Shown here in pieces: positions 15,770 to 41,417 of a stretch of 64,000 bases of DNA. Below the pieces are notes generated by a model. That model had not been told where the DNA came from, made no database searches, and saw only the letters and a list, made by a program, of their open reading frames with translations. Source of the DNA: Candidatus Levybacteria bacterium RIFCSPHIGHO2_02_FULL_40_18 (lineage in GTDB: Bacteria; Patescibacteriota; Microgenomatia; Levybacterales; GWA1-39-11); the NCBI GenBank assembly GCA_001782235.1, contig MFOC01000002.1, positions 42,912-106,911 of the forward strand. The letters are read 5' to 3'. Numbering within the stretch: the first letter of the stretch is position 1; the number at the start of each line of letters is the position of its first letter. The translations under genes and the position numbers were made by a program.

Positions 15770-15811
15770 GAGAATAGTATTATATTAAATACATCGAATA
15801 CATGCCACTAG

Positions 15812-15938
15812 CTAGAAATTGGTTATTAGAAATTAGAAAATGGTTCGGAAATTAGAAATTGGAAATTGGAATTTAATTACCATTTTCTATTTTCAATTCT
15901 CCATTACTATTTTCTATTATCTATTAACTATTTTCTAG
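15812..15938. repeat. palindromic AT-rich intergenic element (family A/B) built of GGAAATT heptamer repeats and their inverse, termini CTAGAAATTGG...AACTATTTTCTAG
   Basis: Four direct GGAAATT-like 7-mers followed by their inverted copies (CCATTTTC). Bounded by CTAG at both ends. Second copy at 41290..41417. Confidence 0.6.
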
Positions 15939-15939
15939 A

Positions 15940-17655
15940 TTATTGTGATGGCAGATTATAGTACTTGATGAGATCGCGGGCAATGTTAAAAAAGATAGGT
16001 GCGGCGGTTTCGGAGCCGTAAATTGATGTCTTGGGACGGTCCACTAGAACCAGCATTGTGATTTTAGGGTTGTCTGCCGGGAAAAATCCTACAAATGATG
16101 CTATTGTTTGATTTGGGTCATAGTGTCCCGCAACCGGAATCTGGGCAGTCCCGGTTTTCCCAGCAATTTTATAATTTTTGATCTTTGTCCATTTTGCCTC
16201 TCCTTCCTCAACTGCCGAGACCATCATGCCGGCTATTATCTTTGACGTTGATTCCTTAATAACTTTTGTTTTAATTTTTGGTTTTATGTCTATTTTTTTA
16301 CCTTCTTCCGTAATTATTTGTGAAACAGCATATGGGGTCATAAGATTCCCCCCATTTGCTATAGCATTGACTGCATTTGCTAGTTGAATCGGCGTAATGG
16401 AAATTCCCTGTCCAAAAGAGGCCGTTGCCAAATCTATCGGATACCATGAATCTTTATCGCGAATTACCCCTGTTGTTTCTCCCTGAAGATCAATCCCTGT
16501 TATTTTTCCAATCCCAAACCTGTTAAGATACTTAATCATATTCGAGAGTCCTAATTTTCTCCCCACAAAAACCATTCCCGTATTATTAGAGTGAATTATT
16601 ACCTCTCGCATCGTAGAGTTTGGAAAATACTTATCGTTCCAGGTCCTTATTTTATAATCCCCCTCCTGAATCGGTCCCGAACAAATATTGCAGCGGGTCT
16701 CGGGTTTAACCTTGTTCTCATCAATTGCCGCAGCCATAATAAGCACCTTAAATGTTGAGCCCGGCTCATAGACGTTCGACAACACGGGATTTGTGTAAGA
16801 GCCTGGGTCAAATTCGTAGTATTTTTGAGGGTCAAATGAAGGAATTGACGATATGGCAAGAATAGCTCCTGTCTCACTCTCCATAACAACCACGCTTCCA
16901 CCCTCTGCGTTATATCGTAGAACTCCCTCGCGAAGCCTCTTTTCCGCCGTAAATTGAACAGTCCTATCAAGCGTTAACTTTAAACTTCTCCCGTCAATTT
17001 TCTTATCCTCCCGTGTATCTCCTACTATTTGATTGCCCAATGCGTCACGAATTGCATAAAGCTTTCCCGAACGCCCTGAGAGTTGTTGGTCATAACGTCC
17101 TTCAATTCCAAAGTATCCTTTATCCTGTCCTTGCGAATCTTTGCCTAAAAACCCAATTAAATGTGCCGCCATAGATGCCTCGGGATAAAATCGAGTATAT
17201 TCTTGCTGAAAACCTAACCCTGCAAGCGCAAGTTTTTCGATCGCCCGCTTTTTATCTTGATCAAGTCCGGTAGCAAGCTTCACCCAGTATAGGTCAGATG
17301 AAAGCTTTGCCGAGACTGATGCCGGATCGTCCGCCAAAATGGTACTTAGTTTCTCAGTATAATCTTGTCTATCTTTTATAATTTTGGGGTTGGTATAAAG
17401 AAAATATGAAATAGTGTTGGTAGCAAGAGGAAAATCATCTCTTGATTTTATTTCCCCTCGAATGGCCGGAATTGTCAGAACTTGAGAGCTTTGAGCGCGG
17501 CCTAGATCCGATAATCCAGATCCGCGGACTATCTGCCATAAAAATAACCTAGCAATTACGGCGATGTAAAAAAAGCACAGGAAGACAAGGACAAGAGCAA
17601 ATCGTAATTTTTCCCCCACCAGGCCAGAGGCCCTCGGGGCCGGAGACCATCTCAT
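15940..17655 (-). CDS. ftsI: class B penicillin-binding protein (transpeptidase) FtsI
   Basis: N-terminal TM. Transpeptidase motifs STFK (EPGSTFKV), SNN (HSNNTG) and KTGT (AGKTGTA). Confidence 0.85.
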   Translation of the reverse strand: MRWSPAPRASGLVGEKLRFALVLVFLCFFYIAVIARLFLWQIVRGSGLSDLGRAQSSQVLTIPAIRGEIKSRDDFPLATNTISYFLYTNPKIIKDRQDYTEKLSTILADDPASVSAKLSSDLYWVKLATGLDQDKKRAIEKLALAGLGFQQEYTRFYPEASMAAHLIGFLGKDSQGQDKGYFGIEGRYDQQLSGRSGKLYAIRDALGNQIVGDTREDKKIDGRSLKLTLDRTVQFTAEKRLREGVLRYNAEGGSVVVMESETGAILAISSIPSFDPQKYYEFDPGSYTNPVLSNVYEPGSTFKVLIMAAAIDENKVKPETRCNICSGPIQEGDYKIRTWNDKYFPNSTMREVIIHSNNTGMVFVGRKLGLSNMIKYLNRFGIGKITGIDLQGETTGVIRDKDSWYPIDLATASFGQGISITPIQLANAVNAIANGGNLMTPYAVSQIITEEGKKIDIKPKIKTKVIKESTSKIIAGMMVSAVEEGEAKWTKIKNYKIAGKTGTAQIPVAGHYDPNQTIASFVGFFPADNPKITMLVLVDRPKTSIYGSETAAPIFFNIARDLIKYYNLPSQ

Positions 17656-17939
17656 CTTGTACGAGCAACCTCAACCGGATCATAAAGCGAGACAAAGCCT
17701 GAGGTCTCCTTGTATCCCAATTCCCCCGCACGAGACGATATAGTATTGTAAGATGAAAGGGTTAACACCTCTGATTGGAGTTTTATATTGTTCTCCGAGA
17801 GCTCTGCAACTTGCGTCCGAAGTTTTGTAGCTTCAATACTCTCAAGTGATTTAGTATTAGACAGGTATATACTAGCTACTTGAGTTATAAAAGCCACAAC
17901 TGCCAAAAATATTATTGTTAACTTTAAATGTTTACTCAT
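17652..17939 (-). CDS. ftsL: FtsL-like cell division protein
   Basis: 95 aa, one N-terminal TM followed by a coiled-coil. Overlaps the ftsI start by 4 nt. Canonical slot between rsmH and ftsI. Confidence 0.5.
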   Translation of the reverse strand: MSKHLKLTIIFLAVVAFITQVASIYLSNTKSLESIEATKLRTQVAELSENNIKLQSEVLTLSSYNTISSRAGELGYKETSGFVSLYDPVEVARTR

Positions 17940-17967
17940 AGGTTAATTTGTTGTTTTTGTCAATTTG

Positions 17968-18888
17968 TTAACTGTTAGTTATCTTCTCTAAAATCCTCAA
18001 TTTCGCGCTTCTTGCTCTTCTATTTGCCTTTATTTCTTCCTCGCTTGGAACTATTGGCTTCTTGTTTGCTAAAATTGCCCTACCTTCTCTTGCTAATCTT
18101 GCAAAAAAGAGCTTTACAACCCTATCTTCAAGCGAATGGAAAGAGATTACAATCAATCTTCCATTTGGAGCAAGAATTTCAAAAGCGCCCGCAAGTCCCT
18201 CTTTCAAATTGTCAATTTCGCTATTTACCGCAATTCGCAAAGCTTGAAACACGCGAGTTGCCGGATGCAATCGAGTAACACCCCGAAGGTGTGTTCCGCT
18301 TGCTCTTGCAACTATTTCTGCAAGTTCCCGACTTGTTTCGATCGGCTTTATTGAACGCGCCCGAACAATACTATCGCAAAATGCGTAAGCATTCTTTTCT
18401 TCACCAAATTTACTAAAAATATTATAAAGTTCATCGCGACTTGCACTGTTTACTATATCTCTTGCTGTTAGCTTTGTTTCGATTGACATCCTCATATCAA
18501 GCGGCTCATCTCTTAAAAAGCTGAATCCTTTCCCCGACTTTTCCATCTGATAGCTCGAGAATCCCAGATCAAATAAAACTCCGTCCGCATTTACGAATCC
18601 TCTTTCCCGAGCTATCCTTTCGATGTCTTTGAAATTTCCTCGTGTTAAAACCAATTCCTGATTCTCGATTCCAGATTCTTGATTCTTCTTGATATACTCA
18701 ATGGCATCTTCGTCCTGGTCAATACCTAACACTTTTCCACCTCTTCGAATGATCTCAGCCGAATGTCCTCCGCCGCCAATTGTCGCATCTATATACTTAC
18801 CGTTCGGCCGAACATTTAGCGCGGAAACCGCTTCTTTTAAAAGAGCAGGGGTGTGAAAACCCCAATTTAATCGGGGAAAATTATTCAT
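17968..18888 (-). CDS. rsmH: 16S rRNA (cytosine1402-N4)-methyltransferase RsmH (MraW)
   Basis: SAM-binding motif IDATIGGGGHS. Follows mraZ with an 8-nt overlap. Confidence 0.9.
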   Translation of the reverse strand: MNNFPRLNWGFHTPALLKEAVSALNVRPNGKYIDATIGGGGHSAEIIRRGGKVLGIDQDEDAIEYIKKNQESGIENQELVLTRGNFKDIERIARERGFVNADGVLFDLGFSSYQMEKSGKGFSFLRDEPLDMRMSIETKLTARDIVNSASRDELYNIFSKFGEEKNAYAFCDSIVRARSIKPIETSRELAEIVARASGTHLRGVTRLHPATRVFQALRIAVNSEIDNLKEGLAGAFEILAPNGRLIVISFHSLEDRVVKLFFARLAREGRAILANKKPIVPSEEEIKANRRARSAKLRILEKITNS

Positions 18889-19321
18889 TTTTCTCCCCCT
18901 TTTTGACTAATCGAGACGAAATCCGTTCTATATTCTTTTCAAGATTCCCCCGATATTCGCCCCAGCGTTTTTTATCCCAAATCTCAACGTAACGTGAAAG
19001 CCCTAGGAATACGATCTCGTCTTCAACCTTTGCAAATTCTCTAAGGTACGGAGGTAATACAAACCTTCCCTTGCTATCCAGCTCCACGGAAGCGGCGCCT
19101 CCAAGTAGGAACCTTTGTGTTTCGCGAGTTTCGTATTCAATAAAGGGGCGGCCGGCCGTACCTTCAAGTAAAGCCTGCCATTGAGTTTCTGAAACGACAA
19201 TAAGTGAGCTTTCATATCCAAGTGTAACTATAATATTGTTTCCGAGAATTTCTCTAAATTTCTTTGGAATTGCCGTTCTTCCTTTTTTATCAATCTTTGC
19301 CTCATACTGACCTATTAACAT
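18881..19321 (-). CDS. mraZ: transcriptional regulator MraZ
   Basis: Duplicated MraZ/SpoVT-AbrB-like halves. N-terminus MLIGQYEAKIDKKGRTAIPKKFR. First gene of the dcw cluster. Confidence 0.9.
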   Translation of the reverse strand: MLIGQYEAKIDKKGRTAIPKKFREILGNNIIVTLGYESSLIVVSETQWQALLEGTAGRPFIEYETRETQRFLLGGAASVELDSKGRFVLPPYLREFAKVEDEIVFLGLSRYVEIWDKKRWGEYRGNLEKNIERISSRLVKKGEKNE

Positions 19322-19354
19322 GGTGTTTTACCTCCGGGGATCGAAGAACCTGCC

Positions 19355-19378
19355 AGTCCCACTTTTTCCCACTTTATA
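19355..19378 (-). promoter_or_regulatory. candidate MraZ operator: direct GTGGGA repeats at 10-bp spacing upstream of mraZ
   Basis: On the coding (minus) strand, AAAGTGGGAAAAAGTGGGACTGG lies 35-57 nt upstream of the mraZ ATG. It contains two TGGGA copies with 10-nt periodicity and a degenerate third. Confidence 0.45.
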
Positions 19379-19680
19379 CCATTTTGAACTACTTTTCACG
19401 GTATGTCAATAGGTAAATGAACCAAAATAGTGTGGAAATACTCCTTTTTACGCTATATCTGGAAATCTTGCTGTTTTCATACAAAGTAGTAACATTAAGT
19501 AATCCAAATCGATTAGACACGAAGTGTACTTTTTCGAAGACAACTGAAAATCGCCCAGGAAAGATACTAATGTAAGAATAAAGATGAATATGCGATTTTC
19601 ATTTAGTGAGGGGTGGATAACTTTAACAGAGTAAAAACTTACCGAGCGGGTCTGAGAAAAACGTACACGAGCGGCTAGTG

Positions 19681-20166
19681 CTATTCTTCTTCAAGGAGGA
19701 TAGTATCTTCTACGGCGCCTATTTCGCCGTTTTCAAAATTGACTTTGATTACTACCTTAACATCGCTTACAACCTTATCGTATTTACATACGTTTGCAGA
19801 GCAGGTTCCCAAATCAACCTCAGCCTGGGCTATTCCTCCACGAATTGTTAACTCCCCAACCGCTCCCCTTGGAACCGTAGCCGATTCACCGTCCTCTGTG
19901 ACTTGCGCATCATATGTCAATTCGTATTCGAAGCTTTTAATACCTTCGACTTTGGTAGCCTTCACAATAACGGCTTTCCCATCTGAACGCAACGTCAGCT
20001 CAAGGCCAATATCCTCCGGTGACATTTGTTTTACGTTTTGCTGTTCCTCACCTTTTGGAGTAAGAGTTTGACTTTGAAATTGATTCCAGACAAAAAATCC
20101 GCCAATTCCCAAAACAACAACTACAATCAAACCAACAATCAAAGCATTTTTCTTAATAAATTCCAT
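19681..20166 (-). CDS. hypothetical membrane-anchored extracytoplasmic protein (161 aa)
   Basis: N-terminal TM (LIVGLIVVVVLGIGGFFVW) followed by a beta-rich soluble domain. Confidence 0.4.
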   Translation of the reverse strand: MEFIKKNALIVGLIVVVVLGIGGFFVWNQFQSQTLTPKGEEQQNVKQMSPEDIGLELTLRSDGKAVIVKATKVEGIKSFEYELTYDAQVTEDGESATVPRGAVGELTIRGGIAQAEVDLGTCSANVCKYDKVVSDVKVVIKVNFENGEIGAVEDTILLEEE

Positions 20167-20209
20167 ATTTATTTATATACAGAAACAAGAATTGTAGTCA
20201 AGCGGAAGG

Positions 20210-20563
20210 CTATGTAAGTTCTCGAACCTCAACGATTTCTCCAGGAGAAGCTTCTCGACCATTCCCACTTGGATGGACAACCACACTTGGAACTTCAGAC
20301 TGCACAGCACTACCATTCCGCCACCACGGATAATCTATACTCCTAATGTAGGATCTGTAACCTAAAATTTGCTTGCTTCTTTTCTTCGGATCTTCTGATA
20401 GTTCAAGTTCGGAAGCGAGTTGTTCCCTTTCCGCTTCTGTTTTTACCACAAGTTTATCACTCATTGCAAAAGTAATTTTGGGATCACGATGATTCCTTAG
20501 GAGAAAATCTGCTTTTATGAGTGCCGGAATGCGGGGGTCAATCTCTCTACGAAACGGCATCAA
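20210..20563 (-). CDS. hypothetical protein (117 aa)
   Basis: Intact ORF downstream of glyQS. No motif recognised. Confidence 0.3.
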   Translation of the reverse strand: MMPFRREIDPRIPALIKADFLLRNHRDPKITFAMSDKLVVKTEAEREQLASELELSEDPKKRSKQILGYRSYIRSIDYPWWRNGSAVQSEVPSVVVHPSGNGREASPGEIVEVRELT

Positions 20564-20611
20564 TTTCTAGTTTGCAGAGAATTTTTAAAATTGTCAATAG
20601 AACAAAGTATA

Positions 20612-21973: not shown

Positions 21974-22039
21974 GAAATCATTATATCAAAGCAGGTTTTT
22001 ATTCTGTAGTAGCACTATCAAATTTCGGAGCATCTGCCT

Positions 22040-23164: not shown

Positions 23165-23199
23165 GGCGAAATTATACTGCTTTTTGGGGGAATTTCCAA

Positions 23200-23418: not shown

Positions 23419-23421
23419 TGG

Positions 23422-23952: not shown

Positions 23953-23960
23953 TTTGTCAT

Positions 23961-24026: not shown

Positions 24027-24032
24027 TGAAGG

Positions 24033-26057: not shown

Positions 26058-26178
26058 AATTTTAGGATAAATGCAAACCTAATCCAACATGTAACACGTG
26101 GCATTTAACATGTGACGAAAGCAATTCTGTCAATTGTCAGTTGTCAAATGTTAATTGTTGTGATTTTGCGCAGAAAAA

Positions 26179-26817: not shown

Positions 26818-26825
26818 AAAATATC

Positions 26826-28115: not shown

Positions 28116-29255
28116 CTATAAAATTCCCAAGATTTTAGCCTTGAACCTTTCGAATGAGAATCTATTAGCATTTTTACGGCAATCTTTCCCATTATAGCGG
28201 CTTGCCCGGAAGCTTTTCAACTTCGAAGCTAATGATTGAACGGTTTGTTTATCAAAAAATACACCGGTTTTCCCCTCGACTATAATCTCTTCTGCCCCAC
28301 CACCCCGAAACGCAATAACAGGCTTGTCGAAGGTTTGCGCTTCAACCATGGTTAATCCAAAATCTTCAACTCCGGGGAACACAAGTGTCTTGCAATTTGC
28401 GTAGTAATATTTAAGATCCGAATCAGAAACATATCCTAAAAAATCAACAGTCGGTCCCGCCATTTTTTTAAGACGATCGAATTCGCTTCCAGTTCCTATG
28501 ATCTTTAACGGCGCGCGAACCTTATTTGCCGCTTTTACAGCAAGGTCGATTCGTTTATAGGGAACTAGTCTCGAAACGATTAAAAAATAGTTTTGAATTT
28601 TGAATTTAGAATTTTGAATTTGTTTCGGATTTCGAATTTCGGATTTCGAATTTAATGGGCGCATCATTAATGGCGGATAAATAACTTCCGATTCTAATCC
28701 GTAATACTTTTTGATTCGACTTTGAACTGTTTCCGATATTGCAATCAATTTGTCTGGCCTTCGTGCTGCAATTTTGTCCCAAAAACGAAGATAGGAAACA
28801 ACCGGCCAAATTATAATTCGAAAAATTGGATTCGAAAAATAGTCTTTGTGTCCGCTCCAAAGATACCTTGTGGGCGTTAAAATAATCGAGATGTGTTTCG
28901 TCTGAGGTTTTGTAATAATGCCTTTTGCAGCCTCAGAAGTTAACGATATAACCAAATCGAAGTCTGAAAAATCGAACGATTCAAATGCAACTGGCATAAG
29001 AGTTGCAAAAACTTCATGATGAGAAGATGCAAACGGGATTTTTTGAAGGAACGACGTTTTTACTGGAATTTTTCTTGCCCAAGAAGCGCGGTCTTCTTTG
29101 TAAACTGATGTAAACAAAACCGAATCGGGAAAAATTTTGCGCAAAGCTATAATAACACGCTCCGCTCCACCCCACTTATTGACTCTATCATAAACCAACG
29201 CCACTTTCATGGGAAGATTATAACATCTTGACAAGTCAATACCAAACCTATACAA
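28116..29255 (-). CDS. family 4 glycosyltransferase (GT4)
   Basis: C-terminal GT-B motif VFPGVEDFGLTMVEAQTFDKPVIAFRGGGAEEII (E-x7-E). The interdomain linker carries a translated 7-nt tandem repeat. Confidence 0.8.
   Translation of the reverse strand: MYRFGIDLSRCYNLPMKVALVYDRVNKWGGAERVIIALRKIFPDSVLFTSVYKEDRASWARKIPVKTSFLQKIPFASSHHEVFATLMPVAFESFDFSDFDLVISLTSEAAKGIITKPQTKHISIILTPTRYLWSGHKDYFSNPIFRIIIWPVVSYLRFWDKIAARRPDKLIAISETVQSRIKKYYGLESEVIYPPLMMRPLNSKSEIRNPKQIQNSKFKIQNYFLIVSRLVPYKRIDLAVKAANKVRAPLKIIGTGSEFDRLKKMAGPTVDFLGYVSDSDLKYYYANCKTLVFPGVEDFGLTMVEAQTFDKPVIAFRGGGAEEIIVEGKTGVFFDKQTVQSLASKLKSFRASRYNGKDCRKNANRFSFERFKAKILGIL
28582..28648. repeat. in-CDS tandem 7-nt repeats (TTTGAAT x4 then TTCGRAT x4)
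   Basis: Tandem units read directly from the sequence. Translated as NSKSEIRNPKQIQNSKFKIQN in the GT4 interdomain linker. Confidence 0.7.
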
Positions 29256-29256: not shown

Positions 29257-29265
29257 CGTATTATT

Positions 29266-29819: not shown

Positions 29820-29906
29820 GACACACCCAATTTTTGCGATAGCAACTTTTGGGTGTATAAAGTCTCTCGAAGAAGAGGTGTGGATCTAGACAACCCGGAG
29901 GGTTGA

Positions 29907-31043
29907 TTAGCTTGAAACCTTTTCTTTAACTGCCGAATTATAGATGCTTAGCGTTTGTTTCGCCATTTCTTTCCATGAGAATTGTTTGGCGCGCGTTTTG
30001 CCTTGGGCAATTAATTCTTTTCGGGATTCTTCGATTAATGAACACGCAAAGGAGATTTTCTGTTTTATATCACTTACATCGCTAGGGTTGCAATAGATAG
30101 CGGCGTTTGAACAAATTTCTCTATGGACGGGAATGTCTGAAACAATGACTGGACAGGAAAGAGACATTGCTTCAACTGCCGTCAATGAAAAGCCTTCTAA
30201 GAATGATGGAACGATGGTTGCTGTCGCATTGGAATAAAGCGAAAAAAGATCAGAATCTTTAACGTTCTCAAAAAATATCGTATTTGCCCCTATATTTAAT
30301 TTTTCTATTTGTTTTTCTATCCTTTTGAAAAAATAATCTCGTTTTCCAACCAAGATAAGCTTTACATCATGATTTTCGTAACTATCGTAGAGAAAATCTC
30401 TGAATGCTGAAAGCAATCCCTCAATATTTTTATGTGGATAGAAATTTCCTACACGCAAAATATATCTTCCTTCGATGAGTGGCGTGTGGCGGGTAGCACG
30501 TAGCAGGTGGTCGATGCCGCCTTCGTATGTCACCTCAACTTTAGAAGGATCAATATTGAGATAAGTTTTCAAAAGATCGTCGCGGACCGCATTTGAGGGA
30601 ACAATAATTTTTTTTGATCTATAAACCGCGTTTGATAAAACCGCATAGTATCCAATGCGTTTTACTAGATATAAGGATAAAGGCAATGTTGACGCTCGAC
30701 CCGTGTTAAATTTATTGACGATTAAATCATGAATCGTGACGATAAACGGCTTATGATAGAAAATTGGAACCGAAAAATATGGGAAATGCATCAAGTCCAG
30801 ATTTTCCTTGTTTAAAAGCTTGGGAAATAAGACTTGTTCGGTAACTGAATGCCAAGGAAAATCTGCTTTGACAACTGACAACTGACCACTGACAACTGAC
30901 TTAATTGCTTTTTCATCATCTGTACGAGCAAACAAGATATATTCGTTTTTTTTGTCGAGCTGAATAAGATTCGAAACAAGATTACGAATGTAACGCCCTA
31001 CTCCTGTTTCATTCCAAAGCCGAACATCAATACCAATCCTCAT
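29907..31043 (-). CDS. family 4 glycosyltransferase (GT4)
   Basis: GT-B C-domain motif VPSFLEGFSLTAVEAMSLSCPVIVSD. Carries the in-CDS 7-mer repeat ACAACTG x4. Confidence 0.8.
   Translation of the reverse strand: MRIGIDVRLWNETGVGRYIRNLVSNLIQLDKKNEYILFARTDDEKAIKSVVSGQLSVVKADFPWHSVTEQVLFPKLLNKENLDLMHFPYFSVPIFYHKPFIVTIHDLIVNKFNTGRASTLPLSLYLVKRIGYYAVLSNAVYRSKKIIVPSNAVRDDLLKTYLNIDPSKVEVTYEGGIDHLLRATRHTPLIEGRYILRVGNFYPHKNIEGLLSAFRDFLYDSYENHDVKLILVGKRDYFFKRIEKQIEKLNIGANTIFFENVKDSDLFSLYSNATATIVPSFLEGFSLTAVEAMSLSCPVIVSDIPVHREICSNAAIYCNPSDVSDIKQKISFACSLIEESRKELIAQGKTRAKQFSWKEMAKQTLSIYNSAVKEKVSS
30870..30900. repeat. in-CDS tandem 7-nt repeat (ACAACTG x4, one variant ACCACTG)
   Basis: Read directly. 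Translated as SVVSGQLSVV near the GT4 N-terminus. Confidence 0.7.
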
Positions 31044-31083
31044 GGTTTTAAGTTGTAAGTTTTAAGATGTAAGTAATTTCTTA
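31044..31083 (-). promoter_or_regulatory. conserved 5' leader motif shared by two adjacent GT genes
   Basis: Coding-strand sequence GAAATTACTTACATCTTAAAACTTACAACTTAAAACC sits directly before the ATG. Paralogous copy at 31990..32030. Confidence 0.45.
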
Positions 31084-31101
31084 AATCGTATATCATACAT
31101 T

Positions 31102-31989
31102 TTACCAACCAGAGATACGCTTCTTTAACGCAATTCCAGTTAGCACCAACATCCTAATTATACTTGGGTATTTATCTTTGTAGTGTTTATCATAAAAGAT
31201 TCTCATAGCGGCAAATCTTGCTTCATGGGCTCTTTTTCTTATTTCGCGGGTTGCGGTTGAATAGCTTTTTGAATCTTTTTTAAGTCCGCCGGATACCCCT
31301 TTATAATGAAGGATTTCAAATTCTGGAACAAAATAAATTTTCCAACCCCGCTCTTTTAACCTGTAACAAAAATCAATATCCTCACCGTACCAAAAGAAAT
31401 CCTCATCCCACCATCTCACCTGTTCCCCTGCTTCTCTCCTGACCAACATAAATGCGCCAGCTAAAGCGTCAACCTCATGAGTTTTGTTTAAGTCTAAATG
31501 TCCCAAACTGTATCCTGCAAATATTTTTGATTTTTTAAACAATTTCGAAAGACTTGAAAAATGCGACAATGCTCTCCATGGTGTTGGAAATCCTCTATGG
31601 GAAGCGTCGTCAAGTCTGCCACTTGGCAGGCGAACAAAACATGTTGCAGCGCCCGCATCTTTATTATGATCCATAAACTCAACCACCCCGTCAATTGTAT
31701 TTTCATAAACAACCGTATCCGTGTTCAAAAACAGAACAAACCGGCCTCTTGCTTCTTTAACGCCAATATTATTTGCTCGTGAAAAACCTACATTTTCCTT
31801 ATTTTGAATAAGTTTTAAGTTTGCGAGCTTAAGTTTTAAGATTTCACTGACTGAATCGTCCTCTGAATTATTATCAACCACGATTATTTCATAAGAATTC
31901 TTTTTAACTGTCCGAACAATCGATCGAATACATTCAATTGTCAAATCCCGGGTATTAAAGGAGACAATAATGATAGATAGGTCAACCAT
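31102..31989 (-). CDS. family 2 glycosyltransferase (GT2)
   Basis: N-terminus LSIIIVSFNTRDLT...VVDNNSED, and DxD region. Confidence 0.8.
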   Translation of the reverse strand: MVDLSIIIVSFNTRDLTIECIRSIVRTVKKNSYEIIVVDNNSEDDSVSEILKLKLANLKLIQNKENVGFSRANNIGVKEARGRFVLFLNTDTVVYENTIDGVVEFMDHNKDAGAATCFVRLPSGRLDDASHRGFPTPWRALSHFSSLSKLFKKSKIFAGYSLGHLDLNKTHEVDALAGAFMLVRREAGEQVRWWDEDFFWYGEDIDFCYRLKERGWKIYFVPEFEILHYKGVSGGLKKDSKSYSTATREIRKRAHEARFAAMRIFYDKHYKDKYPSIIRMLVLTGIALKKRISGW

Positions 31990-32030
31990 ACTAGCTTTTA
32001 AGTTTTACGATGTAAGATTTAAGTAATTTC
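31990..32030 (-). promoter_or_regulatory. second copy of the conserved GT-gene leader motif
   Basis: Coding-strand GAAATTACTTAAATCTTACATCGTAAAACTTAAAAGCTAGT before the ATG at 31989. Shares GAAATTACTTA.ATCTTA and AACTTAAAA with the 31044 copy. Confidence 0.45.
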
Positions 32031-32059
32031 ATACATCTTAGATCTTACAACTTACCTAC

Positions 32060-33229: not shown

Positions 33230-34701
33230 TTTAGTTTTAATATCAAATACTCTTTGCTTGACGAAACGTGTTCATACATTGTCCCGAATCCGCTAAAATC
33301 ACTTGGGGTGGGATTTGCAATTACCAAATGCGTTGCGCCCCGCTCGATCAATTTTTCAATTGGTTCTTGAAATGTGGGCCAGCCGCGCCTTGCGCTCATA
33401 TTAAGCAGGGTTGTGCTTCCGTCATAAGGCGCAATTACGATTGCATCTTTTGGCAAAATCTCATCGGCTCTCTTTCCGGCCGCAACCATTCCCCGATCAT
33501 TAATATTGAAGTAATCCCGAACCAGCATCCACGAAAAATAAAAGGATGTCAAAATTAAAACCCCGAGAACGGCAGATGCAGTAACGTGATTGCTCTTCTC
33601 GGAGGTGAATTCGAATAATTTACTTGCTCCAAGACCGGCAAAGATACTAATTGTAGGAATTATGGCAATTTGATAATAGTCGTGTCTTACGTTACCCGTT
33701 GCTATAACCGAAACATAAAGCGCCGATGCAACAGCAAATGAAAGAAAAAATCCCGCATTCTTATCTAACTGCCACCCATTCGACTCACTCCGTTTACTCA
33801 AGGCAAACAAGCCACCTGCCACGAACAAAATTCCTACATACCCCAGTATCAATTTCGTTATTCTTTCAAAACCAAGCCACCTAAAAAATGCCGGTCGGAA
33901 ACGAATTCCGTCACCATTGAAAAGCCAACTTGACGCTGGAATTCCTTCCGGGAAATGTCCTATCCACCACCGCCAAAGAGTAAAAGGCACTAAAGATAAA
34001 ATTGCGAACACCCAGAGTTGCCATTTTTTTATAAAATCGACCCCGAACGCCTTCCACGCTAAATACGCCATTGGCAGTGTAAAGAAAAGAGCATAAGGCT
34101 TGAGCAAAAGCGCCAGTGCTGTAAAAAGAATTGATAAACCGAATGGCACCAAATACTTTATACTTAATACTTTATACTTAATACTTTTTTCGAGCCAGCG
34201 ATCGAAAAAATAAATTCCTCCAAGAATCGATGCTGCCATAGATGGATCAGGGAGAATTGTCCGTCCAAAAAATATCGAAAATGGCAGAAAAAGATAAAAA
34301 AGGCCGGCAAAAAATCCGGCAAGTTCACTTGCATATCTCTTCACTAAAAGATAGACAAAACATGCTCCTGCAAGACTTGCGAAAATAGAAATCAATCTGC
34401 CCCATTGTTCGAGCGCTAATATTCCGAATACGCCGAATAAACCTGCCTGGACTGCGTTATAAATCGGGAACTCTACAAATCGGTACCCACTTGGATTGTC
34501 AGTGCCAGATTGAATATTTGAGATATCAAAATACCGGGGGTATAAAAGGTTTATACTATCGCGAGCAAAAATTGTCGATACTGCATTTGTGTCGCTCTGC
34601 CTGAAAGCATGCCAATCCGCCACCGGATTATCAAACCTATAAAGCCTAACAATAAATCCAAGCACAAAAATCCCCACCAAAACCCAAGAAATCCTTCTCA
34701 T
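33226..34701 (-). CDS. GT-C fold polytopic membrane glycosyltransferase (ArnT/PMT-like, family 39/83-like)
   Basis: ~12 TM helices. First extracytoplasmic loop has the conserved acidic/aromatic region RFDNPVADWHAFRQSDT typical of lipid-phosphate-sugar dependent GT-C enzymes. Confidence 0.55.
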   Translation of the reverse strand: MRRISWVLVGIFVLGFIVRLYRFDNPVADWHAFRQSDTNAVSTIFARDSINLLYPRYFDISNIQSGTDNPSGYRFVEFPIYNAVQAGLFGVFGILALEQWGRLISIFASLAGACFVYLLVKRYASELAGFFAGLFYLFLPFSIFFGRTILPDPSMAASILGGIYFFDRWLEKSIKYKVLSIKYLVPFGLSILFTALALLLKPYALFFTLPMAYLAWKAFGVDFIKKWQLWVFAILSLVPFTLWRWWIGHFPEGIPASSWLFNGDGIRFRPAFFRWLGFERITKLILGYVGILFVAGGLFALSKRSESNGWQLDKNAGFFLSFAVASALYVSVIATGNVRHDYYQIAIIPTISIFAGLGASKLFEFTSEKSNHVTASAVLGVLILTSFYFSWMLVRDYFNINDRGMVAAGKRADEILPKDAIVIAPYDGSTTLLNMSARRGWPTFQEPIEKLIERGATHLVIANPTPSDFSGFGTMYEHVSSSKEYLILKLK

Positions 34702-34760
34702 AAGCTTAATTCTAGTTTATTTTATAGCATCAATCAAACTTTTTGTTATAATCTCGAGAA

Positions 34761-35705: not shown

Positions 35706-36530
35706 AATGATTAGTGGTACACTAGTGGTACACCCGTCGGGTGAATTAGCTTGGCACCTCACGGCATTTACTCTAAAATTAGATTTTTTATCTTTGCAAG
35801 ATTTCTCTGGTAACCAACCCCATCATTAATAAATTCGCTATATTTCTTCGATCCACCAAATATATTCAAAAGGAATTCAGTTTTTACGAAACTCGCACTT
35901 TTATCTTGGAAGTAAAACTGATAAGACGTATAGGGGTAATTTTTAAGATCGCCAACTTCAATAATATGTGCCGTTACAGGATTTAGATGAATATAACGCG
36001 ATATATGCATAAAATCCTCAGTATCCTCTATCCGCCTACTCTTAAAGGGATTTTGAAACAAACTCCCGTTTCGATCATGTTTTGTATTAAAATATTTGGC
36101 AAAACTATTTTGGACATTAGATGCGAAGATTTTTATTCCATCATCTCGTAATTGCTCCACCAATAAATGGTAATGGTTAGGCATAAAAGCAAATGCATAA
36201 ATTTCGACTAATGGAAAATGATCTTTCACACCAGACAGATATGAATCTCTTAGCTTTATGGTCATTTGTTTAAACTTGGAATATCTCATTGACTGTTGAT
36301 ATCGATAGAAATCAACCGAGTTAACAATCTGAGTCAAATGCCTTAATGAAGAGAATATTGTTTCATTTCCTACGGACTTATTGAAGATATGATAAATTTC
36401 CCCAGTAGCCAATACATCTCTTTTTGCCGACATATCTCAGACTACTATAGAATCCGTAGGGTGTCAATACAATACCACCCGTCGGGTGTATTCGTTTGGA
36501 CCCGTCGCTCAGTCCGCCCCAATTAATCCG
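35706..36530. mobile_element. IS200/IS605-family (RAYT-type) element: Y1 HuH transposase flanked by subterminal hairpins
   Basis: Transposase ORF flanked on both sides by the motif ACCCGTCGGGTG (35733..35752 and 36476..36495, same orientation). Right flank also has the direct repeat TAGTGGTACAC x2. Confidence 0.7.
35768..36433 (-). CDS. REP-associated tyrosine transposase (RAYT) / IS200-like TnpA
   Basis: YHIFNKSVGNETIF (YH..RG motif), HuH motif MPNHYHLLV, and catalytic-Tyr region RYIHLNPVTAHII...NYPYTSY. Confidence 0.8.
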   Translation of the reverse strand: MSAKRDVLATGEIYHIFNKSVGNETIFSSLRHLTQIVNSVDFYRYQQSMRYSKFKQMTIKLRDSYLSGVKDHFPLVEIYAFAFMPNHYHLLVEQLRDDGIKIFASNVQNSFAKYFNTKHDRNGSLFQNPFKSRRIEDTEDFMHISRYIHLNPVTAHIIEVGDLKNYPYTSYQFYFQDKSASFVKTEFLLNIFGGSKKYSEFINDGVGYQRNLAKIKNLILE

Positions 36531-36560
36531 CCTCATTAGCTTTATTGTATCAAAAAAACG

Positions 36561-39500
36561 TTATTGTGGAATGATGGGGTGGCCGTCTTTGAAACGGATT
36601 ACTTCTTCTATGCTTCCATCGTCTTTAAATTCGAATACATGATCTTGAACTGAGGTTCCTGCAAGACTCAAAGCCTCAGGAAGATTTGAATGAACATATA
36701 CTTTTAAGTTGTCATTTTGGAAGGCAAACCAAAGCGCATCAGAAAGGCCCACGGGAAATATCCACGCCTCCCCTGTTTTGATCGAAACATTTACAAACCT
36801 AAATCTTAGATCATTTTTTGACCATGAATCGGAATAGAGCTCATCGATTGAAACAAAGAACTTCTGTACCTTCTGTCCTGCAGTCTGCCAATCACCGTGA
36901 ATTTGCTGAACCTGGATGATATGGAAGAGTGAAAAAATGGCAATCAAAACACCAACGCTCATAATAGCTATGTCTCGTCCATAGGAAGTTAGATATTCGA
37001 ATATCTTTCTGATTACCAAACCCAGTATCAAAATCAGCCCTAGTGTTGGAAGATAGCTGTATCTTGAGGTAATATTCCCAAGCCCCAAAAAAGGAAGGAG
37101 AGCTATCACAAAGAATAACATACCAAATACGGTCACCTTTCTTTCATCTGCGGATAGATATTTAGGAATTATTTTGTATGCAAAGTAAGAAGCACCCAAG
37201 ATCAAGGGAACTAAGACTGCCGCAAGCAAAAGATTATCCCGAAGCCCCGTTCGCAGTGCCGAATACACCGGGAACGAGGAAGGACCTAGAGCCGTTAATA
37301 GAAGATATCCGATTATATTACCGAGAACATTGAACGGTAACTTTATAATACTGTAACTGTAATCTCCGCTAAACCAGTGGCTTCCTGAAGCAAGTCTTAC
37401 CAAAAGATAAACTAAAATCGGAGAGAATAAAAATATGTGGCCCGACTTTTTAATGATCTTTCCTATTGATCCAAATCCTTCCTGAGCGACTTTATAGGCA
37501 ATTATTAGAAGCGGAGTCACAATTCCTACTTCGTGGAAAAGGAAGCCCAGGGATATGAAAACAATAGTTGCAATATAATATAGTGGATTCCTTTTCTCAT
37601 CCCAAACAGAAAACGCCAGAAGTGCGAGAAGCGCAAAAGCCGCGTTGAACAGATATCCGATTGAGGAGATCCAAAAAACGGCTTCTTGATACCCGCTCAT
37701 AAAAAGGAACAATAGTGCCGAAAGACCTGCAAGAATATTGTTCTTGAGGATCTTTCTTGCCAATAAATAGAATAAGACCGAAACTAAGAAATGCAAGATA
37801 AGCGAAGTTATATGGTATACAACCTGATTAAGCCAAAATATAGGATACATTGCCGAAAAGAATATTTTTGTACCGGGCCGGAAGAAAAATCCCTGAGAGT
37901 CAAGAAAATATTTGTAAATTCTCTCGAAAATTGATTTACAGGATGAATAATCACAGTCGGCCGCCCACCTAAACCAGGTAAAGTCGTCTCCTGTGAAATA
38001 GTTGCTAATCATTGGCGAGAATATTACAATTGTTGCAAGCAGCAAATAAAATATAAACGCATATGTTGAAATTGCCGCTTCCTTAAGTTCTTTATACAAA
38101 TCCACAGGTTTTTTTTGATATAAAGCGAGTGTTCCAAGAACTATGCCAGTCAAAAGCCACAGGGAAAAGGCGATTTTTGATGCCTCAAATACATCAATTA
38201 GAGTTGCATTAAACGCAAGACCAATAACTCCCGCAACATATCCTAAAACAAAACTTCTAACAACTCTATTTCTTACCTCTGGTAAGACTTTCTTTATGTA
38301 AATGCCTATTGTTAAGAATATGCCAAAAAAGGAGGCAAGCCCTAAAAGGCCTGTTTCGCCCAATATCCTAAGATAGTTATTATCAACGGCAAGACTGACT
38401 GATCCATATCCGCTTCCTAAAAATACATTCTTGGCAAATATGGCAAGAGTGCGGGGCCACTCCCCCTGAAACCGTGTGGTAAAGGAAAGGTCGTAGGCCG
38501 AGGCCCTTTTGACAATAAAATTACCATGAAGAATTACAACTTCTGCAGACAGAGATGCTTCCTCATCCGGATCAAGTTCGTAGAAAAAATTTCCCAATCT
38601 TTTAACAACCGGTGATAATGAAAGATTTATGTAGCCCGTTCCTTGCGGTAAATTCTCTCCTGTTGAAACATTGCTTGCAGTTACAACCGGGACTTCTGAG
38701 GGAAACTTTAAGGGTTTAGTAAATACTGGATCGGTTGGCCTCTTGAAAGTAGATGAACGAGTAGATTCAACTTCAAGAATCTCGTCAATCTTTCCACCTT
38801 TCATTGCGTGCTGAACTTCACCCAAGTCTTTGACAAAACTTTGACCTATTCTTTTATCTTTAAAATATGAAAATGGGACAAATTTTACGTTTCCAATGGC
38901 ATTCCCTGTTTGAGCATCCACCAAAACGTCCGTTTCGCGGATAGTGCTACCAAACCTTGTAAAAATTGATGGTTGAAATATAACAGAGAGGACGGCGAGA
39001 GCAAAAACAGCGGGCAAAAAAACAAAAATCAACTTCCTCTTTACAAATAAAAGAACAAAGAAAAGAGCTATAAAAAGAACGACAAAAGATATTCTTGAAA
39101 CTGTCCAGAAAAGAACAATGCCGCCTATAACTATAGCTGCCGCAAGCCCTATTTTTACAAGCCAGTTTTTAAATCCAAAAAATAAACCAGCGAGTATTGA
39201 AATAGCAAGAACAAGATATGCTGCAAAATCATAATGCCCGGCAAATGTTGATGGCACGCGGGAAAGAGAAGATAGCTGAATCGGAATTCCTTTGGCAAAT
39301 TCCTCATTCATTGTAAGATACGCCGGTAATCCGAAAAACTTCTGTCCTATACCATATAGAGATACTGCGACTAAAGTTACCGCTAAGACGGTAATTGCAT
39401 ATTTTAAGAAACTCTTATCCCGCATGGCAGAATAGGCAACAAAAAATAAACTCATATACTCTATATGTCTGACATAAGCAAGATATGAAACATTAGGGAA

Positions 39501-39800
39501 TACGTTGGCAAGAGTTGGGAAAAGCAGCACTACTCCGTGAATTGTCGCAATTGCACCGATCGTCCAATATATTAATATGGGAACCGTTAATGGGGTTTTA
39601 ATAGTTATTTTCTTTCTAAACAAAAAAACTAACCATAAAAGTAACGCAAGTAGCACAACGAAATCCTCTGCTCTTACATAAACCCAAGTATTCCGGACAT
39701 CAAGAATTGGTATTTTGGGGAATAATGGAATAAATGCCAAAAGAAATAAGGTGAAAACAAATAAAATATTGTCGGAAATCCACGAGAAAATTTTTTTCAT
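36561..39800 (-). CDS. 1079-aa polytopic membrane protein: O-antigen ligase/polymerase-like (Wzy_C-like) N-terminal domain fused to a GT-C-like domain
   Basis: More than 20 predicted TM helices. N-terminal half resembles O-antigen ligase family proteins. C-terminal half has the GT-C-like segment DDFTWFRWAADCDYS...FFFRPGTKIFFSAMYPIFW. Confidence 0.5.
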   Translation of the reverse strand: MKKIFSWISDNILFVFTLFLLAFIPLFPKIPILDVRNTWVYVRAEDFVVLLALLLWLVFLFRKKITIKTPLTVPILIYWTIGAIATIHGVVLLFPTLANVFPNVSYLAYVRHIEYMSLFFVAYSAMRDKSFLKYAITVLAVTLVAVSLYGIGQKFFGLPAYLTMNEEFAKGIPIQLSSLSRVPSTFAGHYDFAAYLVLAISILAGLFFGFKNWLVKIGLAAAIVIGGIVLFWTVSRISFVVLFIALFFVLLFVKRKLIFVFLPAVFALAVLSVIFQPSIFTRFGSTIRETDVLVDAQTGNAIGNVKFVPFSYFKDKRIGQSFVKDLGEVQHAMKGGKIDEILEVESTRSSTFKRPTDPVFTKPLKFPSEVPVVTASNVSTGENLPQGTGYINLSLSPVVKRLGNFFYELDPDEEASLSAEVVILHGNFIVKRASAYDLSFTTRFQGEWPRTLAIFAKNVFLGSGYGSVSLAVDNNYLRILGETGLLGLASFFGIFLTIGIYIKKVLPEVRNRVVRSFVLGYVAGVIGLAFNATLIDVFEASKIAFSLWLLTGIVLGTLALYQKKPVDLYKELKEAAISTYAFIFYLLLATIVIFSPMISNYFTGDDFTWFRWAADCDYSSCKSIFERIYKYFLDSQGFFFRPGTKIFFSAMYPIFWLNQVVYHITSLILHFLVSVLFYLLARKILKNNILAGLSALLFLFMSGYQEAVFWISSIGYLFNAAFALLALLAFSVWDEKRNPLYYIATIVFISLGFLFHEVGIVTPLLIIAYKVAQEGFGSIGKIIKKSGHIFLFSPILVYLLVRLASGSHWFSGDYSYSIIKLPFNVLGNIIGYLLLTALGPSSFPVYSALRTGLRDNLLLAAVLVPLILGASYFAYKIIPKYLSADERKVTVFGMLFFVIALLPFLGLGNITSRYSYLPTLGLILILGLVIRKIFEYLTSYGRDIAIMSVGVLIAIFSLFHIIQVQQIHGDWQTAGQKVQKFFVSIDELYSDSWSKNDLRFRFVNVSIKTGEAWIFPVGLSDALWFAFQNDNLKVYVHSNLPEALSLAGTSVQDHVFEFKDDGSIEEVIRFKDGHPIIPQ

Positions 39801-39868
39801 AAAATTGAATAGCTAAATAGCTAAATGGCTACATGGTTTTTAACCATTCAACTATTCAACCATTTTAA

Positions 39869-40738
39869 CTATACTTTGAGCATCCTCTTGTATGTATCGG
39901 TTAAGTATTTATTATTTATGATTTTACCTAAAACTACAAGAGCAAAAGATTTAGAAAAAAGTAAAAACTTCACAAAACTATACGAAAAAGGATTGCCGTG
40001 TTTTTTTTGAAAATAGATTAATCCCTTATGAATGTTCCTGATTGCAAACCCGCGACTTGAACTGGCATAACCTTCGTGAATTACTTCGATTGAGGGATCG
40101 AATACAACCTCAAGTCCTTCTTTTTTAACTCTGTAACAAAACTCCATGTCCTCAATATACATGAATAAGTTCTCATCGAATCCGTTAAATCTTGCAAATA
40201 GGTCGCGACGAACAGCCATAAAACCACCGCTCACAAAATCTACCTGCTGATTTCTTCCTGGCGAGAATCTTATTCCGAACGTCTCATCTAAACCTAATGC
40301 TGTAAGAAAAACTTCCGATGTTTTTAAAAATTTACCTGCCGATTTCTCACTTTTTAGGTTTCTATTTAAAATCTTTCCCCCCGCCACCCCAACATTGACA
40401 TCTTCTTCGAATATAGAAACTAAATTATCTAGCGAACCCTTATTCCACTCACAGTCGGGATTTATAAACAGAAGGTACTCTCCTCGCGCTTCTTTTGCTC
40501 CGATATTAATCCCTTTCGCGAATCCAAAATTCTCCTTGTTCTCTATAATTTTGACTTTTGACTTCAAATTTTGACTTTTGACTTTTGAATTTTGAATTAT
40601 CTCTAATGTTCCATCGGTCGAATTATTATCCACAACAATAACTTCAAAAGCTTTGTCTTTATTAAATTTAAAGATACTCTCAAGAAGCCTTTCGATGTAT
40701 TTCGCTGAATTATACGTGACGATAATTATCGAAACCAT
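39869..40738 (-). CDS. family 2 glycosyltransferase (GT2)
   Basis: N-terminus MVSIIIVTYNSAKYIERLLESI...VVDNNSTDGT. Carries the in-CDS 7-mer repeat. Confidence 0.8.
   Translation of the reverse strand: MVSIIIVTYNSAKYIERLLESIFKFNKDKAFEVIVVDNNSTDGTLEIIQNSKVKSQNLKSKVKIIENKENFGFAKGINIGAKEARGEYLLFINPDCEWNKGSLDNLVSIFEEDVNVGVAGGKILNRNLKSEKSAGKFLKTSEVFLTALGLDETFGIRFSPGRNQQVDFVSGGFMAVRRDLFARFNGFDENLFMYIEDMEFCYRVKKEGLEVVFDPSIEVIHEGYASSSRGFAIRNIHKGLIYFQKKHGNPFSYSFVKFLLFSKSFALVVLGKIINNKYLTDTYKRMLKV
40551..40606. repeat. in-CDS tandem 7-nt repeats (TTGACTT / TTGAATT, ~8 units)
   Basis: Read directly. Translated as NSKVKSQNLKSKVKIIEN inside the GT2 between the DNNS region and the ENFGFAKGIN motif. Confidence 0.7.
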
Positions 40739-41280
40739 GCTGCCCTTCCCAGACGATACGTGGGGTTTTTGAGTTTTCGCTCGCCAATTACTTTTGCCGG
40801 AACGCCGCCCACAATTTCAAACTCCCCAACATCGCGTGTAACTACTGCTCCTGCCCCAACCACAGCTCCTTTACCGATTTTTACTCCCGGCAAAATTATG
40901 GCGCGGGGCCCTATAAAAACGTAGTCGCCGATTTCAACAGGAGATGTTACGGCTTTAAAATTTTCGTCATTTATATCATGTTCTGCATTGTAGATCATTA
41001 CTTCACTCGCAATATCTACGTGATCACCAATTATTAATTTGTCTCGACCGTCCAAAACCGCGTTTTCTCCAATAATCGAATCTTGACCTATCGATATCTT
41101 ACATGCATCGTAAAAAACAGCACCCATGTGCAGGGTTGAGCCTTTGCCGATTTTCATGCCCTGAATCCTATAGAAAAACCGCCTTACGTGATGAAACGGA
41201 ATGTGACCAACGCATTTTAATACCATATTGTCACACTCTAATAGTATTGCCTTAAGTCTTCTTATGATTTTATTAAACAT
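40726..41280 (-). CDS. hexapeptide-repeat sugar O-acetyltransferase (WcaF/MAT-like)
   Basis: Left-handed beta-helix repeats IGENAVLDGRDKLIIGDHVDIASEVMI...IGPRAIILPGVKIGKGAVVGAGAVV. Confidence 0.8.
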   Translation of the reverse strand: MFNKIIRRLKAILLECDNMVLKCVGHIPFHHVRRFFYRIQGMKIGKGSTLHMGAVFYDACKISIGQDSIIGENAVLDGRDKLIIGDHVDIASEVMIYNAEHDINDENFKAVTSPVEIGDYVFIGPRAIILPGVKIGKGAVVGAGAVVTRDVGEFEIVGGVPAKVIGERKLKNPTYRLGRAAWFR

Positions 41281-41289
41281 ATATTTATT

Positions 41290-41417
41290 TAGAAATTGGT
41301 TAATAGAAATTTGATATTGGTTATGGAAATTAGATATTGGAAATTTGTATATTTTTAACTATTATCTATTTTCCAGTTTCCATTACCATTTTCCATTTTC
41401 TCACAACTATTTTCTAG
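41290..41417. repeat. palindromic AT-rich intergenic element, second copy of family A/B (TAGAAATTGGTTAATAGAAATT...AACTATTTTCTAG)
   Basis: Termini nearly identical to the element at 15812..15938. Internal GGAAATT / CCATTTTC heptamer arms. The right-end CTAG contains the TAG stop codon of GT4 41414..42580. Confidence 0.6.

Follow-up and report, generated by a model that had tools for sequence, protein, structure and literature searches.

Two copies of a dispersed, heptamer-built palindromic repeat in intergenic gaps of a Levybacteria genome

Small palindromic repeats lying between genes are familiar from several groups of bacteria. Those closest in form to the elements treated here are the ERIC or IRU sequences (enterobacterial repetitive intergenic consensus, or intergenic repeat units) of the Enterobacteria, which are imperfect palindromes of about 127 bp, and the Correia elements (Correia repeat enclosed elements, CREE) of Neisseria; both occupy transcribed intergenic gaps and gene ends, in either orientation, and both are patchily distributed. 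To our knowledge no transposase is known for ERIC. The BOX elements of Streptococcus pneumoniae are likewise small, modular intergenic repeats with hairpin potential, in which internal tandem sub-units are present in variable number. Genomes of the candidate phyla radiation (CPR, or Patescibacteria) are generally portrayed as small and streamlined, with little mobile DNA, and no description of such elements in CPR bacteria or Microgenomates was found in the searchable literature. The present analysis concerns a stretch of 64,000 nucleotides (“the window”) from Candidatus Levybacteria bacterium RIFCSPHIGHO2_02_FULL_40_18 (contig MFOC01000002.1, positions 42,912 to 106,911), in which two heptamer-built palindromes, copy A at 15812..15938 and copy B at 41290..41417 (both on the plus strand, by the convention that the G-rich arm comes first), stand at the ends of genes. 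With moderate confidence these are interpreted as two old, diverged copies of a non-autonomous, hairpin-forming dispersed repeat akin to miniature inverted-repeat transposable elements (MITEs), REPINs or ERIC.

Two further kinds of repeat are needed for the comparison. A REP sequence (repetitive extragenic palindrome) is defined as a palindrome of 20-40 nt with a conserved GTAG or CGTC head, found as an inverted pair in the doublets called REPINs (PMC3733652). The heptamer repeats of the STRR (short tandemly repeated repetitive) and TAACTGA kind, found in Cyanobacteria, Beggiatoaceae and Bacteroidetes, have a patchy phylogeny that suggests horizontal spread, by no known mechanism (PMC4679880).

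Copies A and B align colinearly throughout, with two 1-nt indels and some 81% identity over the whole element, whereas the outermost 13 nt at each end are identical (26/26), just as the original prediction had it when it placed two elements with shared termini at these positions. In copy A the left arm (about 15812-15872) is separated from the right arm (about 15881-15938) by a loop at about 15873-15880, and both copies form the long, imperfect hairpins that had been expected, each of some 55 bp, with calculated RNA folding energies of -44.2 kcal/mol for A (z = -7.8) and -32.5 kcal/mol for B (z = -4.9). The arms had been thought to consist of about four repeats each, but this proved too few: there are about eight heptamers of the type GAAA(A/T)T(A/G) per arm, and Tandem Repeats Finder (TRF) reports period-7 arrays running through both arms of A and B, with a super-period of about 20 nt superimposed. 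The terminal 13-mer TAGAAATTGGTTA, allowing up to two mismatches, occurs 15 times against an expectation of 5.1 ± 2.4 (none of 100 shuffles reached 15), and the excess is located inside A and B. Both copies are unchanged in independent NCBI and ENA assemblies that encode an identical FtsI protein, and are therefore not assembly artefacts; copy B is also present in L050, the single locus retrieved of 24 assemblies that share the gene arrangement (L numbers are used here for retrieved loci). The similarity between A and B extends about 7 nt past the terminal CTAG into the ends of the upstream genes (15935-15945 compared with 41414-41424, or on the gene strand CAATAATCTAG compared with CAGTAAGCTAG, including the ftsI stop TAA), which may be accidental, may reflect a preferred target, or may mean that the element is slightly longer.

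Evidence that A and B belong to a dispersed family comes from metagenome contigs, which were scanned with the pattern TAGAAATTGGTT-N(86-116)-AACTATTTTCTA. This yielded 38 stretches with exactly matching termini; two (L025 and L037) are non-palindromic chance matches and were excluded, while the remaining 36 are palindromic family members and amount to 21 distinct further elements, 110-136 nt long, each with different flanks. A dispersed family with conserved ends, as had been proposed, is thus represented at no fewer than 21 loci in addition to the original two. Searching with a profile made from the 21 elements adds, on these contigs, further full copies that have diverged as well as half copies consisting of one arm, with up to three per 9-14 kb. 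Two copies in different surroundings can be as much as 95-97% identical; A and B stand furthest from the rest, neither exceeding 84% identity to another copy. In profile searches of the window and related loci, A and B are the only strong matches within the window (E of about 1e-24 to 1e-38; for A, E = 2.5e-24 and for B, E = 3.2e-26 with the profile of the 21 elements), and a profile built from A and B alone adds to these two only a weak match to an array at 43343-43399 (E = 0.0012). The repeat is about 116-129 nt long, its terminal consensus is TAGAAATTGGTTA…AACTATTTTCTA, and the terminal inverted repeat TAGAAATTGGTTA / TAACTATTTTCTA pairs at 11 of 13 positions (one of them G-T). In the alignment each heptamer, the units being of the form GGAAATT/TAGAAAT, has an invariant core, GAAA in the left arm and TTTC in the right, with three variable positions between successive cores. 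No open reading frame (ORF) spans the element at any of the 21 loci.

Copies also vary internally and show nesting. Indels inside the arms distinguish strains (L020 from L022, and L024 from L032), family copies are found at the centre of a palindrome built of CTAAATC heptamers (L040, L015, L019), and partial family-like sequence lies directly beside full copies in L024/L032 and L046. At L020 2607-2760, and also in L014, L022, L035 and L044, a GC-rich hairpin, CCTGCCCGCC…TTTTGCGAAGCAAAA…GGCGGG, is nested in a family copy and splits its left arm; in L022 the right arm is shortened relative to that in L020.

All copies are intergenic, and they occur in both orientations. Taking the strand on which the G-rich arm comes first, the flanking genes are both antisense to it at eight loci as well as at A and B, both sense at four, convergent at two and divergent at two. 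The copies often lie less than 10 nt from a stop codon and from the next start; in L034, L027, L036 and L038, for instance, 4-6 nt (on another count 4-8 nt) separate the element from the upstream stop, and the distance to the next start is -1 to 8 nt (start codons being called as the first in-frame start). Neighbouring genes are of housekeeping type, including those for L31, RNase J and a TrpRS-TyrRS-class synthetase (Pfam tRNA-synt_1b), LemA/M48, topoisomerase I, glutamate dehydrogenase (GDH), ribosomal proteins and pilus proteins, and some copies lie within the S10/spc ribosomal operon and within a pilus operon. In the window itself, where nearly all genes are on the minus strand, copy A lies between ftsI upstream (a penicillin-binding protein gene, 571 aa, 15940-17655, minus strand) and murC downstream (14261-15769, minus strand; TIGR01082 equivalog, 337 bits against a cut-off of 335). 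It begins 1 nt from the ftsI TAA stop (15940-15942), and its other end is 43 nt before the murC ATG, with a promoter-like GTGGCA-18-TATAAT sequence in the interval (15808 to 15779, minus strand). Copy B lies between a family 4 glycosyltransferase (GT4) gene (388 aa, 41414-42580, minus strand) and a hexapeptide-repeat acyltransferase gene (40726-41280, minus strand) whose ATG (41280) is 9 nt past the far end of the copy. The claim that the elements sit at gene 3' ends is confirmed, A and B adjoining or overlapping the upstream stops. In copy B the terminal CTAG, at the gene-stop end, does supply the TAG stop, this being the reverse complement of CTA at 41414-41416; the L31 gene in L047 likewise takes its TAG stop from the element, and in L029 the upstream ORF terminates 3 nt inside the copy.

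At three sites the presence or absence of the element could be compared between orthologous gaps, and in each case empty sites exist. The ftsI-murC site is empty in relatives whose FtsI is 84, 84, 81, 79, 71 and 67% identical (67-85% overall); their gaps are 33-97 nt long and contain a TGnTATAAT-like box, and FtsI stops at the same codon position as in the window. The genes for pilB and a response regulator are 2 nt apart in relatives with 80% and 87% PilB identity, and a copy of 126 nt lies between them in L038. Between rpsN and rpsH a copy abuts the rpsH ATG in L040, whereas the gap in L019 is 13 nt; the flanks of these two sequences agree at 99.8% over 3.6 kb to one side and at 96% over 81 nt to the other. 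Palindromes of 100-150 nt fill several S10/spc gaps of L019 and L040, and in a relative with 79% S3 identity the S10/spc gaps from L16 to S8 are 1-12 nt. A lack of further copies coupled with conservation of A and B at orthologous sites, the combination that was to have told against a mobile family, is clearly not what the comparison reveals.

The family had also been thought specific to this lineage, which turned out to be wrong. No copy is present in about 190 kb from the nearest Levybacteria (FtsI 67-85% identical), and several are carried by the contig represented by L019 and L040, the S3 of which is closest among named sequences to those of Staskawicz-, Nealson- and Gribaldobacteria (Parcubacteria lineages), at 62-69% identity. 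For L038 no closer grouping than ‘Patescibacteria’ was obtained, and tblastx of the metagenome contigs against the Levybacteria loci shows almost no genes in common. On sequence comparison, the occurrence in different CPR classes of a non-coding element that is about 80-90% identical and yet missing from close relatives argues for horizontal spread. A phage or plasmid vector was considered and rejected, as no copies were found in the phage, plasmid and IMG/VR collections: the first two gave no blastn match to the family and IMG/VR no exact-termini match, and the single match to a relaxed left-end pattern is a chance match in a coding region.

Set beside the described systems, the family resembles ERIC and Correia in its length (about 120-127 bp), in being an imperfect palindrome over its whole extent, in its position in operon gaps, in its occurrence in either orientation and in its patchiness. 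However, it has no sequence similarity to either, its arms are tandem heptamers with a super-period of about 20 nt, its hosts are CPR bacteria, and the TA duplication characteristic of Correia could not be shown for it. It resembles BOX less closely, since the BOX sub-units are some 45-60 nt long and form distinct modules A, B and C with no sequence relation to the family. REPINs, and REP sequences mobilised by RAYT transposases (PMC3116915; PMC3733652), are similar in forming a hairpin doublet of about 100 nt that is intergenic, non-coding and dispersed, and in that amplification within a genome may be deduced from near-identical copies; the family nevertheless falls outside the REP definition, as its consensus is without a GTAG or CGTC head and its arms are heptamer arrays of about 55 nt, and it differs further in spanning distantly related hosts. 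No RAYT gene (of the Y1 HUH type, flanked by REPs) was seen in the 64-kb window. With MITEs derived from IS630/Tc1-like or other insertion sequences (IS) it has in common its small size (MITEs being under about 600 bp), lack of coding capacity, terminal inverted repeats, many copies dispersed at unrelated loci, insertion polymorphism and TA/CTAG ends like those at IS630-type targets, but its ends are fuzzy, no target-site duplication is demonstrable, and no parent IS with matching termini was found. The STRR/TAACTGA repeats (PMC4679880) are alike in being period-7 intergenic units near start and stop codons, with several unit families per genome; they are, however, mainly direct arrays of one unit, as opposed to a fixed inverted double array of about 120 nt that is dispersed as one element, and both their units (TAACTGA etc., as against GGAAATT/TAGAAAT) and their host phyla (as against Levybacteria) are different.

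Several observations weigh against the interpretation of A and B as copies of a mobile repeat. The ends of the element are not sharply defined, about half of the copies having one extra GAAAA…ATTTC unit, and five carry a duplication of about 20 nt of the left end. Only two copies were counted in the 64 kb of the window. The pilB-response regulator and rpsN-rpsH pairs are not clean insertions, in that a short gap sequence has been replaced and a few extra nt differ. No target-site duplication could be demonstrated, nor any consistent direct repeat in the flanks; the candidate TA or TAG cannot be told apart from the terminal repeat with which it coincides. Neither a transposase nor a longer element with the family termini was found among the ORFs tested in the window and in the fetched loci (about 0.3 Mb). 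Finally, the claim that the family crosses classes depends on one contig family, most of the metagenome contigs having no taxonomic assignment. The description of the elements as MITE-like in the original prediction is accordingly borne out as regards a dispersed repeat with conserved ends, but not as regards a target-site duplication or an autonomous partner, and for want of the duplication and of a parent IS strict MITE status is unproven. A candidate for a cargo-carrying or autonomous version, in which two half-elements of L019 lying 1.1 kb apart enclose rplX, rplN and rpsQ, was rejected, each half being part of a separate intergenic palindrome.

Family membership, dispersal, intergenic placement, nesting and the filled or empty state of orthologous sites are all shown directly, whereas the mobilising activity, the horizontal transfer and the coupling-preserving neutrality are inferred. 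If the family is indeed mobile, its spread might be pictured as follows. The element would have been copied into many unrelated intergenic gaps and would have crossed between CPR lineages, mobilised by an enzyme acting in trans that probably recognises terminal or hairpin structure. Copies would then persist where they are harmless, as may be the case where only a few nt separate a stop codon from the next start or promoter. In the polycistronic mRNA, pairing of the two ends would keep the stop of the upstream gene next to the start of the downstream one where the stem begins, and a terminating ribosome would melt this part of the stem so as to expose the next start. In that event operon expression and translational coupling could survive an insertion, and such adjacency would account for the persistence of copies where relatives have gaps of only 2-13 nt. 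The heptamer structure itself would come from the origin of the element and from its ongoing remodelling by slippage within tandem units, as opposed to any known function; the arms are probably moulded by slippage and fold-back, from which new family masters may also arise.

The family does not stand alone: these genomes hold several co-occurring families of palindromes, built of heptamers, 8-mers or 9-mers. Within the window, a period-9 palindrome of the same architecture but a different family lies at 7677-7762 between ftsW and murG. The ftsW-murG gap of L051 (a relative with 79% FtsI identity; L051 19570-19660) contains a period-9 palindrome too, its unit having diverged in both arms, so that some members of the class must be old residents, and this one is possibly an old element with co-evolving arms; in L053 and L054 the genes at this position overlap. 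A period-8 AATAGTTA palindrome at 6062-6144, again a different family of the same architecture, is related to a period-8 AATAGCTA palindrome at 39801-39868, for which the minus strand folds better (-27.2 against -12.9 kcal/mol). Two TAAGTTx heptamer elements at 31044-31101 and 31996-32059, 80% identical to one another, bracket a gene at 31102-31989, and the unit of the former is the reverse complement of that of the AACTTAC palindromes in L040 and L038. TGTCAAT heptamers form an intergenic hairpin at 26128-26158, and altogether TRF finds period-7 arrays in at least ten places in the window besides A and B.

The contigs that bear family copies similarly hold AACTTAC, CTAAATC, ACGAATA and period-10 palindromes. 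By a strict gapless score, which under-counts elements with indels (copy A included), long palindromes number 1.78 per 10 kb on copy-bearing contigs, most of them family copies, against 0.05 in relatives; a census by sliding RNAfold was too lax for such a comparison, giving about 7 matches per 10 kb in both of the groups for which totals were listed. Near-perfect (AACTTAC)n palindromes occur at L040 8690-8794, where the periodicity of the array is 0.98, and at L038 9789-9881; their opposite arm pairs largely through G-U (GTGAGTT/GTGGGTT), and the two strands of the L038 palindrome fold at -51 and -34 kcal/mol, an asymmetry that is inconsistent from family to family. The rplX-rplN gap of L019 (about 4960-5095) holds a different element of about 135 nt with perfect 15-nt terminal inverted repeats, CCCCGTTAGAAGTCT…AGACTTCTAACGGGG, and so a second kind of small palindrome inserted in the ribosomal protein operon.

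Heptamer arrays are also found inside ORFs, and are hence not confined to intergenic DNA. A fragment of the family had been reported from a truncated GT4 gene; it does have its heptamer unit in common with the family, but the match to the family profile is weak (E = 0.0012) and does not sustain its status as the remnant of a copy. What lies there, at 43343-43401 (plus strand) within the truncated GT4 N-domain ORF 43003-43536, is a single-arm array, a perfect (AATTGGA)x4.7 at 43369-43401, that is in frame (…RRQFPISNFQFPIN…). Other period-7 arrays within long ORFs of the glycosyltransferase/envelope cluster are at 28591-28653, 30869-30900, 34152-34187 and 40549-40595; like that at 43369-43401 they are apparently read in frame, as in the case of QFPISNFQFPIN in the truncated GT4. 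Between this truncated ORF and the complete GT4 gene, a unit at 42581-43009 has the appearance of a heptamer palindrome that carries cargo: an ORF of 122 aa (42610-42978), belonging to the ‘23S rRNA intervening-sequence protein’/four-helix-bundle group (PF05635, TIGR02436, weakly Avd-like), is flanked by inverted ATACTTA-type heptamer arrays at 42585-42617 and 42977-43009, with arms of 33 nt that are 82% complementary, and a third array of ATACTTA units is that at 34152-34187. Besides this glycosylation cluster the window contains a cell-division and cell-wall cluster (2978-19321) of unusual order: mraZ-rsmH-(ftsL-like)-ftsI-murC-murA-like (EPSP_synthase family)-glmU-like-murF-like-mraY-ftsW-murG-(140 aa)-ftsA-…-ftsZ. 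A GC-rich palindromic motif, CACCCGTCGGGTG followed by ATTAGCTTGG-like sequence, recurs in intergenic DNA at 29892-29915, 35731-35754 and 36476-36499, the first two being places where genes converge, and may be a terminator or another small repeat.

Four other explanations of copies A and B, all less well supported than a dispersed palindromic repeat, deserve discussion. The first, which is unlikely, is that each copy is a selected cis-acting RNA hairpin, either a processing or stabilising site (for RNase III, or as a barrier to 3'-exonucleases, as with REP and ERIC) or a termination-reinitiation coupler, the dispersal being secondary. This would fit elements that lie inside read-through operons (S10/spc, the division and cell-wall cluster, the pilus operon), only a few nt away from stop and start codons, and have strong hairpin energies (z = -5 to -8), as well as the retention in the 79% relative of the orthologous period-9 palindrome at ftsW-murG with both its arms diverged. 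It is also the case that 17 of the 21 copies fold better on the same strand of the element, that with the G-rich arm first, because of G-U pairs. As a strand asymmetry inherited from the family consensus, in a setting of mixed gene orientation, this proves nothing; the strand bias of A and B, which fold 8-13 kcal/mol better antisense to their genes, was likewise discarded as evidence for an RNA, other palindromes in the window and in related contigs being inconsistent in their strand preference and the family occurring in both orientations. Against an RNA acting in cis, the better-folding strand of A and B is antisense to the genes, the elements lie in both orientations to transcription, and close relatives manage with gaps of 2-97 nt and no hairpin. 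There is no compensatory covariation: of 33 pairs only two have changed on both sides, in one sequence each; the covariation term amounts to +0.14 kcal/mol, and all 21 aligned copies retain a U-U mismatch. Rfam has no such family: searching the window against Rfam 15 gave no match at the gathering threshold, the best sub-threshold ones being generic hairpins of at most 21 bits against cut-offs of 38-184. The original suggestion of a structured RNA family finds no support in covariation, orientation or Rfam, nor in any terminator signature.

A second explanation would do without movement altogether, each palindrome having arisen in place through heptamer slippage together with fold-back or template switching. 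It would account naturally for the many unit sequences that share one architecture in the window and related contigs, for near-perfect and recently expanded arrays such as (AACTTAC)n in L040, and for the fuzzy ends, duplicated left-end units and strain-level arm indels. As an account of the family it is nonetheless very improbable, as it leaves unexplained an identity of 80-97% over some 120 nt, with the same order of units, at unrelated loci and in different organisms; segmental duplication is no remedy, since the flanks are not duplicated with the copies. Generation in place may nevertheless be the source of family masters and of the remodelling of copies.

According to a third explanation, which carries an equally small probability, the elements would serve as rows of sites for a protein each monomer of which recognises one heptamer, on single- or double-stranded nucleic acid, a cold-shock-domain or nucleoid protein being the candidate, and a super-period of about 21 nt would correspond to two helical turns. 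The invariant GAAA/TTTC core of each heptamer with its three variable positions, and the higher-order period of about 20 nt, are what such a reader might require, and there is a precedent in CspB, which binds heptamer repeats with one protein per unit, repeats of this sort being abundant, in a role not known, in some phyla (PMC4679880). Direct evidence and an associated gene are both lacking, though, and the co-occurring families have unrelated units, such that a sequence-specific reader would need many specificities. The least probable explanation, Rho-independent termination at gene 3' ends, has little beyond the stable hairpin directly after stop codons to recommend it, given that the stems are AT-rich and some 55 bp long, that neither strand of A or B has, within or at the element, a GC-rich stem with a T-run (terminator-like sites number none around A and two near B, both outside the element and on the antisense strand), that elements occur in both orientations, and that they lie inside essential co-transcribed operons, as at rpsN-rpsH, where one abuts the rpsH ATG. 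Integron attC sites, CRISPR, iterons and riboswitches were also considered and rejected on account of the core housekeeping neighbours, the absence of a spacer array and the absence of Rfam support.

Returning to the reading of A and B as copies of a dispersed repeat, one may speculate on a broader version of it, although as a whole this is a doubtful proposition: that some CPR bacteria harbour a structure-recognising copying mechanism, distinct from a classical cut-and-paste transposase, which spreads several unrelated heptamer-periodic hairpin families across distant lineages, with a preference for the centres of hairpins and for stop-start gaps of 2-15 nt, the self-pairing insert preserving translational coupling. 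The agent may be an enzyme that handles single-strand hairpins, or a template-switching process. If true, this would be a new kind of operon-compatible selfish element, and insertion that preserves coupling would be what allows streamlined genomes to tolerate it even in a ribosomal protein operon.

In genomes usually regarded as poor in mobile DNA, a repeat of about 120 nt and its sister families have spread into the very short spaces between essential genes that are transcribed together (ribosomal, cell-division and type IV pilus genes), and the family appears in no fewer than two distant CPR lineages but not in close relatives. These palindromes also link the CPR to the unexplained heptamer repeats of cyanobacteria, Beggiatoaceae and Bacteroidetes. 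If the mobile interpretation is correct, the family would mark the horizontal flow of DNA between CPR lineages and contribute to strain-level variation and to breaks in assemblies, and it would amount to a natural experiment on how far long hairpins between cistrons can be tolerated.

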